Assembly (NCBI RefSeq): GCF_053078305.1
Contig: NZ_CP166879.1
DNA: 64,000 bases
Strand: one strand, 5' to 3'
Part shown: positions 18,001-48,000 of the stretch, piece by piece
Numbering within the stretch: position 1 is the first letter of the stretch
How the letters are laid out: each line of letters begins with the position of its first letter
Program-made: the position numbers

Positions 18001-21000
18001 AACAGGACGTCATTTTTCTGAAAAAATAGCTTTTTCCCGGCAATCTCTGTTTCAAACGGACGGTTAACAAGAATAACGTAACAGACAATCATCACATATA
18101 CTCCCTGATTAGCATAAAAACAACGATATCAAAAGACTAGACGCTTTTTCAGGAAAAATCTTATTTGCCCAGGATTATTCTTACGAGACCGGCGCTTCAA
18201 CGGTACCGTCACATTTTTTACAGGCTTTTTTTACCCGTTCTGTGCTGATCACTTTCAGGGAGCTGCTCACCAGTTCCAGTTGTTCAGCGCTGACTTCCCC
18301 AGATAATCCAGCTCACCGCCACACTCCGGGCAACAGCTTTCTTCAGGCTCCAGCCGGTGTATTTCACGGGGAAGGTGTGCCGGTGTCAGCGCTAGTGGTA
18401 TAAGACGGTTCTCCCTCATCGTTTGTCCTTAGTATTGTCAGCGCCAACAATGTGGGCTGGCATTATAAATGCCGTCGAGGCAATCGTTCGCCTCTCCAGT
18501 GGGCAATCCAAATGGTGATTGTCACGGTTAGACGTTTATTTTGAAGGTCGACTGAATAAGGTGATAACGCTGTAGTATTTTCACGTGATACAGAATTCTG
18601 AACGTTCTCTCTTACAATATTTCAATGTTTCTGTCCGTATTCACCGGAAGAAGTCATCGACCAAATCATACCAGTCGTCTCACTCCACTGACCATTCATG
18701 GTTGACAGGTGGTGAAAATCCGCTTCTGCAGTAACCATTTTTTATTCGCAAAATCGAACACGCCATTGCGGATGGCTGTTAACTGGCATGCCGAGGCAGT
18801 CATTATTTATATTTGGTTTTGTCAGTAATATTCATTTTTTGTAAAAGGTAAATATAAATTATTCTCATTATTGTTTGTATTTGTGTATTGTCTTGCCGAT
18901 TAACATGATCGGAGATTAGTAATATGCGAATAACCACTCTGGCTTCCGTTGTCATTCCCTGTCTCGGGTTTTCAGCCAGCAGCATGGCAGCAGAGGATGT
19001 GATGATTGTCTCGGCATCCGGCTATGAGAAAAAACTGACCAACGCAGCCGCCAGTGTTTCCGTAATCAGTCAGGAGGAATTGCAGTCCAGCCAGTACCAC
19101 GATCTGGCGGAGGCACTGAGAGCTGTGGAGGGTGTGGATGTTGAAAGTGGTACGGGTAAAACCGGTGGGCTGGAAATCAGCATCCGTGGAATGCCCGCCA
19201 GTTACACGCTGATACTGATTGATGGTGTCCGTCAGGGCGGGAGCGGGGACGTGACGCCTAACGGTTTTTCTGCCATGAATACCGGGTTCATGCCTCCTCT
19301 GGCCGCGATTGAGCGTATTGAGGTTATCAGGGGGCCGATGTCCACACTGTATGGCTCTGATGCGATGGGTGGTGTGGTGAATATCATTACCAAAAAGAAT
19401 GCAGACAAATGGCTCTCTTCCGTCAACGCCGGGCTGAATCTGCAGGAGAGTAACAAATGGGGCAACAGCAGCCAGTTTAATTTCTGGAGCAGTGGCCCTC
19501 TTGTGGATGATTCTGTCAGTCTGCAGATCCGCGGCAGCACACAGCAGCGTCAGGGCTCATCGGTCACATCACTGAGCGACACATCAGCCACGCGTATTCC
19601 TTATCCCACGGAGTCACAGAATTATAATCTTGGTGCGCGTATTGACTGGAAGGCTACGGAGCAGGATGTGCTCTGGTTTGATATGGATACCACCCGGCAG
19701 CGTTATGATAACCGGGATGGGCAACTGGGGAGTCTGACGGGGGGATATGACCGGACCCTGCGCTATGAGCGAAACAAAATTTCAGCTGGCTATGATCATA
19801 CTTTCACCTTCGGAACATGGAAATCGTATCTGAACTGGAACGAGACAGAAAATAAAGGTCGTGAGCTCGTACGCAGTGTACTGAAGCGCGACAAATGGGG
19901 GCTTGCCGGTCAGCCGCGGGAGCTTAAGGAATCGAACCTTATCCTGAATTCATTGCTGCTTACCCCTCTGGGAGAATCTCATCTGCTTACTGTGGGGGGA
20001 GAGTATCAGAGTTCGTCCATGAAAGATGGGGTTGTCCTTGCCAGCACAGGTGAAACTTTCCGACAGAAAAGCTGGTCGGTATTTGCTGAGGATGAGTGGC
20101 ATCTCACGGATGTACTTGCGCTGACTGCAGGCAGTCGCTATGAACATCATGATCAATTCGGGGGACACTTCAGTCCGCGTGCATATCTGGTCTGGGACGT
20201 GACCGATGCCTGGACGCTGAAAGGCGGTGTGACCACGGGATATAAAGCCCCCACCATGGGACAGTTACATAAGGGGATCAGCGGTGTATCCGGGCAGGGA
20301 CGTACTAATCTACTCGGTAACCCCGAACTGAAGCCGGAAGAGAGTGTAAGTTATGAGGCGGGGGTATATTACGATAACCTCTCCGGTCTGAATGCCAATA
20401 TAACAGGCTTTATAACAGACTTCTCCAACAAGATTGTCTCTTATTCCATTGATGATAACACCAATAGCTATACAAACAGCGGAAAGGCCCGCTTGCATGG
20501 TGTGGAATTTGCCGGCACATTGCCGCTGTGGTCAGAGGATGTCACTCTGTCGTTGAATTACACCTGGACCCGAAGTGAACAACGTGATGGTGATAACAAA
20601 GGTGCACCGCTGAGCTATACTCCTGAACACATGGTGAATGCGAAACTGAACTGGCAGATCACCGAAGAAGTTGCGTCATGGCTGGGGGCTCGCTATCGCG
20701 ATAAAACTCCACGCTTCACCCGGAATTATTCGTCGCTGAGCGCTGTACAGAAGAAAGTGTATGATGAGAAAGGAGAATATCTGAAAGCCTGGACGGTGGT
20801 GGATGCAGGTCTGTCGTGGAAGGTGACGGATGCCCTGACGCTGAATGCTGCGGTGAATAATGTGCTCAACAAGGATTACAGTGACGTGAGCCTGTTCAGT
20901 GCCGGTAAGAGTACGCTTTATGCCGGTGATTACTTCCAGACGGGCTCATCAACAACGGGATATGTGATACCTGAGCGAAATTACTGGATGTCGCTGAACT

Positions 21001-45000: not shown

Positions 45001-48000
45001 GCTGACGAAATGGGTCTGGCAGAATGAATCTGAACTGCGCCCTGAAAACACACAAATACAATGCTAACTCAATGAAAAATAATGAACATCTGTACCGGGA
45101 GTGGTATGCTCCCCTGTATGGATATCTCTGCTCTCAACACCACGAATTGGCATCGAAGTTCAATCAGCTATTCGCATCCATTCGATCAATCGGGAACTGA
45201 CTTACCACTATCGTGCTGCTTTTCCCGTAACGATCCTCTATGATCTCCAGAAGGTCATTACACTGGGCGTTACTTAACTGTTCCAGCCCCAGATCGTCCA
45301 GAATTAGAACCTGTATTTTTTGCAACTGTTTCAGATGGTTCAGCCAGTTGCCATCAACACGTCCCTGAGCCAGTTGTTCCAGTAATCACCGGTTCTACAG
45401 TACCGGACGCTGTGTTTCTGTCGACATGCCTGTTCGCCCAACGCATTGGCTATCCAGCTTTTGCCGCATCCTGTCGGACCGGTTATCAGCAGGTTTTTCC
45501 TGTGGATTATGTAGTGACCGTTCAGCAACTCCCTCATCTGTTCAGCCCACAGACCTCTTGAGGCCGGATAACGCAGCCCTTCCGATGTTGCCTGGTATTT
45601 CAGGCCGGCATTTTTTCTCAACCGTGCCACACGACTGGTTTCCCTGCTCAGAAGCTCGCCATCAACCAGCAGCATCAGCCTTTCCTCGAACGATAGTTCG
45701 TCGTAAGTCTGAGGCGTTTCCCGCTGCCGTATCAGGCTCCCAGCCATCGCCGGGAGTTTCAGTTGGATCAGTTTGTTTAACAGATTATCACTCATACGGT
45801 TGTTCCTTCCGTCAGTGGTAGTAGCCCGGACCACGCAGATTTTCATGCTCTGAAGCATATGCCGGATGTTGTTCGCCCTGACGGGATAATGGAAGCTCAG
45901 GGTTCTCCCTATGGTGACGCAACAGATTGTCGATAAAGCGTCTGTCCGGTGCGTTATAGTGCAGGGCAACGTAACAGGCCTTTTCCAGCCATTCCGAACC
46001 GTATTTTTTCTGAAGTGTCAGCAGACCCAGGATTGCACGGTAAGCCAGTTCCGGATGGAGTTTTGCATTCAGCATGGGTTCAACCACCCGACCTGTGGAC
46101 GGGCCTGTACGTTTTCCCTGCTCGATAAGGCATTCCGGTGTCCATGTCCCGTGCCGCCGGTGGCGCTCAGGCATGTGAAGCGGATTGGTTGTGTATTTAT
46201 ATTCATGTGTGCTGCGCGGATGTTGCCCCCACGCAACCGGCGAAACACTCATATGAACTGACCACTCTAGGGAAGGACATATTCCTACCATTAACAGAAA
46301 ACTCACCAATAAAGACCCGGCTAAAACGACTTCCAGTGAACCATCACATAGTACCAGGTTGGATAAAGTCCATTCTCAACCGCAAACCACTGGGTCAGTT
46401 AAATATTCTGAATGACTGGTATTGTAATTATACGTAAAAATAACGCCAACAAACTGGTCAACCAATAAAAGCAAGAGGTTGATCACTTTCCTGGTAACGG
46501 GAAACGGGTAATATTTGGAACAACATGTGACCTTGTAAGCTTCCTTCTTAACCATTTGAGGTATATATGAAATATATAAAACACTACAGATGGCATATGA
46601 TTGTTCTCGTATGTTTCATTACAATCATTAACTATCTTGACCGTACAGCTCTTGGCGTTGCGGCACCAACCATAATGTCAGATTTAGGGATCTCTAAAGA
46701 ACAGTATTCCTGGATTGTAAGTGTATTCCAGCTGGCGTACACAATAGGTCAACCAATTATGGGGTTCTTTATTGATAATATCGGCCTTAAATTAGGCTTC
46801 TTTATCTGTGCAGTTATCTGGGGATTAGCCACTATGGGACACGCCCTGACTGGCTCCTGGATGGGACTGGCATTCATGCGTGGCATCATGGGCGTTAGTG
46901 AAGCTTCAGCTATTCCGGCGGGCGTAAAAACAGCTTCAACCTGGTTTCCGGCAAAAGAACGAGGCATCGCAACCGGCGTATTTAACATGGGAACATCATT
47001 TGGTGCCATGTTAGCCCCTCCTTTGATTGCATGGTGTATTATGTTCCACAGCTGGCAATTTGCTTTTATTGTAGCAGGTATACTGGCTGTAATAGCCGCA
47101 TTTATCTGGCTGATTTTCTATAAAGAACCAAAAGATGCAAAACGCCTTTCACCAGAAGAACGTTCATATATTGAAAATGGTCAGGAAAAGCATCTTAACA
47201 ATGCAAAAAAAGAAAAAACATCAGTAATCAACATCCTGAAACAAAGAAACTTTTGGGGAATCGGCATTTCTCGCTTTTTAGCTGACCCTGCATGGGGAAC
47301 AATTAACTTCTGGGTACCTGTTTTCTTTGTCGAAACACTGCATTTCAGCCTGAAAGAAATTGCCATGTTTGTATGGCTCCCATTCCTCATGGCTGATTTA
47401 GGGTGTCTTGCCAGTGGATTTGTTGCAAAATTCTTCAATGAAAGAGGAATTTCATTAATAAATTCACGACGTATTACTTTTACTATTGGTGCAATACTGA
47501 TGACGACCATTGGTCTGGTCAGCATCATAGAAAATCCCTATATTGCAGTTTTATTAATCAGCATTGGGGGATTCTCACATCAATTACTTTCTACTGTTGC
47601 TGCAACTTTAGGTGCTGACCTGTTTAAAAAGAATGAAGTCGCAACAGCTGTCGGAATGGCCGGGGCATGTGCATGGTCTGGTCAGCTGATTTTTAATTTA
47701 TTCATTGGTGCATTTGTCAGTATCATCGGCTTTGGGCCGTTCTTTATTGCACTGGCTGTATTTGACCTGATTGGTGCAGCAGCTTTATGGATACTGATAA
47801 AAGATAACAAACAGACAGATGATCACAGTCATAACAACAAACTGATTTCATCACACTAAGACGACGTCATTGTTTAATAAATTTAAACAATTATATATAA
47901 ATTTTATACTCTGAACATGAAAACCGAGTTAGCACTGGCGCATTTATTTGCGAGAAGGAGACCTCCAAAACCCTTATCGTGCCTTCATACTGCAGCCGGG

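Follow-up and report, generated by a model that had tools for sequence, protein, structure and literature searches.

The 64,000-nt stretch of contig NZ_CP166879.1 (NCBI RefSeq assembly GCF_053078305.1) considered here, called the window below and always meaning the whole of it, is a mosaic E. coli-type genomic or pathogenicity island of the pheV type, lying at a tRNA-Phe site, as judged by comparison with annotated E. coli genomes. It carries an integrase gene, the SPATE gene espI, iha, btuB, a pdu microcompartment locus, an MFS transporter gene and a cdi locus, along with remnants of five insertion sequences (IS), which are our subject. Blocks of this mosaic are likely to have been joined at IS scars left by deletions. 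A preliminary description, made from the sequence alone, had placed inactivated IS66, IS256, IS66 plus IS21, and IS4 remnants at four sites between functional modules. All of these remnants are real and their family assignments right. Their extents, redetermined by DNA comparison, are as follows.

18185-18385, minus strand: ISEc23-like (IS66 family) piece from inside tnpC that takes in the zinc-finger region; 93.9% identity to locus L015 3001-3197, with a weak zf-IS66 Pfam match
21108-21325, minus strand: IS1414-like (IS256 family) remnant, comprising the final 218 nt of the transposase gene, terminus lost; 95.4% identity, E 2e-97
44276-45147, plus strand: ISEc49-like (IS66 family) left part; 94% identity to two intact copies (L018, L019), with a TnpB_IS66 Pfam match at 1.3e-30
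45148-46229, minus strand: ISSso4-like (IS21 family) internal fragment without termini; 94.4% identity to locus L003, with IstB_IS21 Pfam matches on two open reading frames (ORFs)
50080-51504, minus strand: IS4, full length at 1425 bp, transposase frameshifted; 97.8% identity to the K-12-type and tdk/adhE copies

The identities are to annotated intact copies, and none of the five is functional here; in line with the preliminary description, the window nowhere codes for an intact DDE transposase. Presumably about 8% of ISEc23, 35% of ISEc49, 17% of IS1414 and 44% of ISSso4 are retained, taking element lengths estimated in part from annotated copies.

The earlier coordinates were off because they were based on ORFs. 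The IS66 remnant given as 18180-18520 amounts to about 200 bp and not 340 bp, 18411-18520 being iha cassette; the IS256 homology given as 21084-21284 is shifted to the span listed; 44362-46310 resolves into the two listed spans, 46310 being an ORF end past the homology; and the frameshifted IS4, given as starting at 50060, starts at 50080 and is a full-length pseudogene, not a fragment.

Scar identity and extent were determined with BLAST and alignment against annotated IS copies in E. coli genomes, the pool being 5,426 complete E. coli genomes; the remnants are 2.2-6% diverged from the closest copies in this pool. Pfam annotation of the raw ORF fragments recognised neither the IS256 piece nor the tail of IstA, nor the first half of the zinc-finger piece from IS66, and therefore DNA comparison with annotated genomes was needed. 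Six-frame Pfam annotation of 10650-12400, 16400-17400, 23450-25950, 47850-50100 and 51490-52300 found no further transposase domains, and BLASTN with nine other IS from the comparison loci (IS1, IS2, IS3, IS5, IS30, IS110 and IS600 copies) gave no further matches in the window.

Module boundaries were mapped independently of the IS, as the points where homology to other islands ends. Among these islands are the subtilase-encoding pathogenicity island (SE-PAI) of pheV and the selC island LPA, short for locus of proteolysis activity (Schmidt et al. 2001, as cited in PMC6920203 and PMC9729726); LPA, and LAA as well, are described in these two papers. The blocks that adjoin the truncated remnants are the following.

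10803-18194, minus strand: espI-AraC block; 98.9% identity to SE-PAI (L023 14099-21489) and, from 10993, 98.1% to LPA (L001)
12350-16441: espI (SPATE), in the espI-AraC block common to SE-PAI and LPA
17355-18095: AraC regulator, in the same common block
18411-21084, plus strand: iha cassette, about 2.65 kb (iha coding sequence 18924-21011), with the same ends in other islands
21378-23481, minus strand: island btuB with its cobalamin riboswitch (23288-23481), from the PGAP annotation of L001 and Rfam RF00174
46227-48186, plus strand: MFS transporter block (coding sequence 46567-47859); 92.7% identity to strain C5 (L022 4001-5975)

SE-PAI homology stops at 18194, within 9 bp of the start of the ISEc23 piece at 18185-18189. 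For the iha cassette, the O157 tellurite island (L012) and a uropathogenic E. coli (UPEC) island (L013) both have homology that starts at 18411 or 18434 and stops at 21084, at 93.3-93.6% identity; the cassette edges lie 26 bp from the end of the ISEc23 piece (~18385) and 24 bp from the start of the IS1414 piece (21108). Homology of the MFS block to bovine strain C5 begins at 46227, 2 bp from the ISSso4 edge at 46229. The preliminary description had proposed a comparison of module order across related genomes, and in that comparison scar edges coincide with breakpoints at four junctions: the espI-AraC end, both iha cassette ends and the MFS block start, each within 2-26 bp of a truncated IS edge. 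With 10 IS edges spread over 64 kb, chance would place a breakpoint within 30 bp of one of them in about 1% of cases; since 4 of ~12 breakpoints do lie that close, the association between scars and breakpoints is beyond chance.

The truncated edges of the ISEc23, IS1414 and ISSso4 remnants are thus themselves breakpoints, and therefore the joining events cut IS DNA that was already present; lineage-specific erosion of the scars followed. The iha cassette, whose 2.65 kb have fixed ends in three kinds of island, abuts other IS debris elsewhere: an IS3-family pseudogene lies directly upstream of it in UPEC, and both O157 and UPEC have a transposase pseudogene on its downstream side. In strain C5 the MFS gene stands beside an integrase-core pseudogene on one side and an intact phosphoethanolamine-transferase (ept) gene.

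The ISEc23-like scar retains about 200 bp of a roughly 2.5-kb element, and both of its edges are inside tnpC. The BLAST span, 18189-18384, corresponds to nt 369-565 of the 1614-nt ISEc23 tnpC (93.9% identity, E 4e-82) and includes a 1-bp deletion. The tnpA-tnpB-tnpC gene set of an IS66 element, with its intact DDE TnpC, is not found at 18185-18385, nor are terminal inverted repeats with an 8-bp target duplication, the termini being absent. PGAP annotates the corresponding stretch of LPA genomes (L001) as a frameshifted, incomplete IS66 zinc-finger pseudogene. This scar and the IS1414 scar are common to 24 complete genomes, with flanks 98.6-98.7% identical, and these include the selC-borne LPA. 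Since the window is of the pheV type, the two scars are therefore older than the spread of the block that holds them. In UPEC NZ_CP109921.1 (L013) the same 196-bp tnpC segment, at 140-336 and in the orientation opposite to that of the scar in the window, is part of a frameshifted ISEc43 gene lying 2.6 kb upstream of iha; the association of IS66-family elements with the iha cassette may be of long standing.

The IS1414-like scar gives direct evidence of stepwise decay. What is left at 21108-21325 is not the single intact ~400-aa transposase with terminal inverted repeats of an IS256-family element. Alignment with full IS1414 shows that the copy in the selC LPA (L001) still keeps the terminus (GAGCCTGTTCAGG...); relative to it, the window has undergone a 46-bp deletion between two GAAGTGACC repeats that removed the terminus. 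The deletion in the selC LPA is another one, of 55 bp, located at the inner edge of the IS1414 piece between ACTCG(A/G)TGG repeats. The ancestral scar was therefore eroded independently in two lineages, and in this shared, differently eroded form it can serve as a lineage marker for tracing LPA- or LAA-type blocks. ORF translations of the IS1414 piece, compared with the EAST1 peptide, showed no match to an astA (EAST1) toxin frame.

The third site is a fusion of two truncated elements. The ISEc49-like part keeps its left terminus, as is seen from two intact copies whose flanking sequences converge exactly on the position corresponding to 44276/44277; its right terminus is absent. The tnpA gene, from 44365, is a pseudogene in which CAA has become TAA at 44443 and 1 bp has been inserted, and only about the first 25 codons of tnpC remain, leaving the IS66 gene set incomplete. 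The tnpB ORF (44681-45067) is open over 128 aa and covers TnpB_IS66 at 99 of 101 profile positions, and it has three indels, namely a -1/+4 patch that is locally frame-shifted and a further 1-bp deletion (87% protein identity vs 94% DNA identity). In the ISSso4-like part neither gene is intact: istB has a 163-bp deletion, the end points of which overlap, and a 1-bp deletion, and only the last 139 of 511 codons are left of istA. The true ISSso4 terminus (TGCGTATTCC...) lies about 25 bp outside the window homology, according to two independent copies, and the other end has gone with istA; the TG...CA terminal repeats of an IS21 element are accordingly missing at 45148-46229.

The two elements join within a stretch alike at 14 of 17 nt (CACGAATGACATCGAA in one, CACGGATTGGCATCGAA in the other). 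A nested insertion of ISSso4 into the ISEc49 tnpC was considered and rejected; because the ISSso4 terminus is lost and the join falls in this similar stretch, the join is a deletion.

IS4 is a whole pseudogene, with no mapped breakpoint at its place. The loss of one G after 51062 splits its transposase into 126-aa and 308-aa ORFs in place of an intact 442-aa DDE transposase, and substitutions specific to the window include 8 synonymous and 11 non-synonymous ones, W311R and two L-to-P changes among them. Against the reference (1426 bp, 18-19-bp repeats), the right repeat matches at 18/19 positions and the left at 14/19, all five mismatches being in the outer 13 bp. The four truncated scars are without a complete pair of inverted repeats. 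In a search for the 11-13-bp target duplication of IS4, the right flank CCTCTCAGGAGGG had no partner at the left end or nearby. An intact IS4 copy between tdk and adhE (L021) has a 12-bp target duplication; 51505-51517, outside the right end of IS4 in the window, consists of CCTCTCAGGAGGG and a T run, is hairpin-like and resembles that duplication (CCCCAGAAGGGG), which hints at a shared target preference.

Two other views of the IS4 copy were rejected. It does not share the insertion site of the K-12 KpLE2 IS4, even though both lie near an ept pseudogene, the flanks being without homology. Nor is the element longer than annotated, as a 13-bp match past its end in some genomes might indicate; that match is a similar hairpin-like target sequence instead. 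A diverged direct repeat of ~140 bp and ~70% identity flanks IS4 (~49915-50050 and 51640-51770), and its right copy resembles unannotated stretches of 1.5-7.5-kb E. coli plasmids at 73-90% identity.

These observations fit a likely course of assembly. Blocks that are found separately elsewhere (the SE-PAI-like left end with espI-AraC, the iha cassette, btuB, foreign cob/pdu, MFS-ept, and cdi) would have come together with five IS (ISEc23-like, IS1414-like, ISEc49-like, ISSso4-like and IS4) formerly lying between some of them. Deletions with end points inside IS copies would then have removed most of each element along with neighbouring DNA, many of them spanning repeats, or stretches of similarity, of about 8-17 bp. 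Short non-mobile scars would have been left at the joins, to be altered later by point mutations and small indels.

The preliminary description had seen in the remnants an old, stabilised assembly by successive insertions and deletions. To call the ISEc23 and IS1414 scars ‘old’ is reasonable, because both are common to the 24 genomes that include the selC-borne island. ‘Stabilised’ holds narrowly, in that the island's own IS copies cannot move and can no longer rearrange it; a full-length integrase ORF and an attachment-site fragment remain, and stability in the wider sense is unproven. On the whole, that interpretation is partly supported. We infer the relative age of the events, and likewise that the joins were brought about by the IS copies, whether the route was IS-IS recombination, deletion next to an element or composite mobilisation.

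Several points weigh against joining at IS scars. No IS trace was found at 10802/10803, 10993, 23605, 48186, 48870 or 51844; most of the ~12 junctions (about eight) are without IS, and joins in this island therefore do not as a rule have an IS scar. These junctions are where selC-LPA homology begins (10993), where LPA homology ends and runs into the decayed cob operon (23605), the edges of an ept remnant (48186 and 48870) and the point where YkgJ/DUF4376-related sequence begins (51844). The boundary role given earlier to every remnant stands for the edges of ISEc23, IS1414 and ISSso4 and is unsupported for IS4: no complete comparator genome spans both of its flanks, and both may belong to one block, given the ~140-bp repeat. 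The 4.6-6% divergence of scars could reflect divergent donor variants and not age in place. Deletion end points in IS DNA would also be expected if IS were merely the most dispensable DNA between selected genes. SE-PAI has a 3.3-kb tia-subAB segment that the window lacks at 10802/10803, where the join is clean and neither an IS nor a repeat was detected.

The IS might alternatively be late hitchhikers, inserted into tolerant gaps between modules already joined and decayed since. All scars do lie between genes or operons, and most junctions have no IS DNA; for IS4, a whole element in a region with mutually similar flanks and no mapped breakpoint, this account fits. At ISEc23, IS1414 and ISSso4, however, truncated internal edges match homology stops to 2-26 bp, whereas late insertion would keep the flanks contiguous, and for these three scars no island with both flanks as uninterrupted sequence occurs in the 5,426 complete genomes. 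As an explanation of the remnants as a set, hitchhiking is therefore unlikely, and joining by deletions that cut resident IS is preferred.

Far less probable is domestication of some remnants, whether of the open IS66 tnpB or as outward promoters for iha, btuB or the MFS gene. The nearly complete TnpB_IS66 match of the tnpB ORF would suit it, as would the conservation of scars with their flanks in many genomes. But tnpB bears its three indels, with protein identity below DNA identity, and its partners tnpA and tnpC are defunct or missing; the right-hand scars are conserved clonally (99.99% identity), which is uninformative on selection; and the IS1414 scar is eroding differently in two lineages. 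Finally, although IS sequence is a common source of misjoins in draft assemblies, there is practically no chance that the mosaic is an artefact of contigs misjoined at repeated IS, with the same arrangement base for base in eight independent assemblies, LPA-type joins in 21-24 complete genomes, and scars too short and diverged to form repeats within the window, where self-BLAST found an ept duplicate as the sole repeat. Over 36567-57859 the eight assemblies, one with a 5.5-Mb contig, match at 99.99% identity with no indels, which shows the arrangement to be real and to have become fixed in a lineage.

The remaining listed features are at the left end of the island, and right of the MFS block.

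3618-3667, plus strand: tRNA-Phe 3′ part, a pheV-type attachment site and the island left end; aligns to the SE-PAI tRNA-Phe/integrase junction (L023)
3865-5127, plus strand: P4-type tyrosine integrase, 420 aa, ORF full length; 94.8% identity, ungapped, to the SE-PAI integrase region
5579-9094, plus strand: helicase and nuclease-type protein, 1171 aa, just after the integrase, in the place of the SE-PAI TPR gene
9203-10702: ept gene, open ORF of 499 aa; 95.8% identity to the K-12 yjgX pseudogene
48184-48870, minus strand: second ept copy, decayed to its 3′ end and a small internal piece; 89% identity to the L023 ept region and to window 9211-9635, with a Sulfatase Pfam match

The tRNA-Phe 3′ fragment is 50 nt long, with the anticodon region altered; ARAGORN found no whole tRNA in the window and no tRNA-Sec. 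Genes of an SPI-7-type integrative and conjugative element (ICE), among them ParA and DnaB-like genes, occupy 1-3537 and reach the tRNA-Phe fragment, which points to a tandem of two elements at one tRNA site. The 1171-aa protein has sub-threshold NCBIfam matches to anti-phage helicase proteins (PLuB, ProA, Hhe).

In its P4-type integrase beside a tRNA-Phe attachment sequence (3618-3667, then 3865-5127), and in its mosaic of blocks common to other islands with IS scars at four joins, the window resembles the GI-pheV islands. In a 2024 study of those, modules are coding clusters delimited by insertion sequences, and whole-module loss is ascribed to flanking IS (PMC11537424). It differs in content, with espI, iha, btuB, pdu and cdi where the described UPEC types have pap, sat, iuc, nan and flu (PMC11537424), in that almost all of its IS are fragments, and in the ICE-like element directly upstream of the attachment-site fragment.

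LPA and LAA module II offer the closest collinearity, through espI, AraC, the IS66 scar, iha, the IS256 scar, btuB and the riboswitch, over window 10993-23605 at 98.1-98.6% identity; the adjacency of iha and btuB has already been recorded (PMC6920203). Unlike LPA the window copy is not at selC, and only the espI-to-btuB core is shared. Beyond that core the window runs on into cob/pdu, whereas the selC island has PTS/LacI genes, and the 46-bp deletion in the IS1414 scar is the window's own. With SE-PAI the window shares tRNA-Phe, integrase, ept, hypothetical genes, espI and AraC at 95-99% identity, up to the IS66 scar where homology stops; it lacks tia-subAB and has the 1171-aa helicase-nuclease gene where SE-PAI has the TPR gene.

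IS-separated island modules are thus already known for pheV islands, LPA and LAA, and the finding is real but ordinary. Its use lies in corrected coordinates that separate dead IS DNA from genes; beyond annotation it is of little consequence. Taken as a set, these blocks may represent a variant of the island not described before. We put forward tentatively, as less likely than not, that it is an undescribed pheV island type in which B12 uptake (an extra btuB with its own riboswitch) is physically coupled to a foreign B12-dependent pdu microcompartment operon for 1,2-propanediol, beside espI, iha and cdi. If this is true, the order of assembly would be readable from the IS scars and microhomology deletions. 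A propanediol cluster was reported in 2012 as unique to the LEE-negative Shiga toxin-producing E. coli isolate C165-02 (PMC3491183), and it could be the one on this island.

A second cobalamin riboswitch (25531-25705, minus strand) lies 2 kb from that of btuB and heads a decayed cob operon (23799-25523), of which all that is left is the N-terminal part of cbiG and a fragment resembling cbiA, directly upstream of pocR-pduF-pdu. No IS debris was seen at the btuB/cob join, and tRNA and Rfam scans of the window found nothing beyond the two riboswitches. The locus pocR-pduF-pduA...pduW (25946-44146) has only ~77.6% identity to the E. coli chromosomal pdu, which stops at pduV, and because of this low identity it looks like a separately acquired copy. 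The interval from pduW to the ISEc49 scar has no ORF of the size of pduX.

A DUF5339 gene, IS4 and then the cdi locus with orphan modules fill the right part of the window. The cdi locus runs over 52281-63933 (minus strand), with a cdiA ORF of >2300 aa whose stop codon is at ~57031; the window stops within cdiA, and the right end of the island therefore lies beyond it. After cdiA come several orphan toxin/immunity modules (PT-VENN, EC869-like toxin, CdiI) and, on the opposite strand, a weakly SymE-toxin-like ORF.

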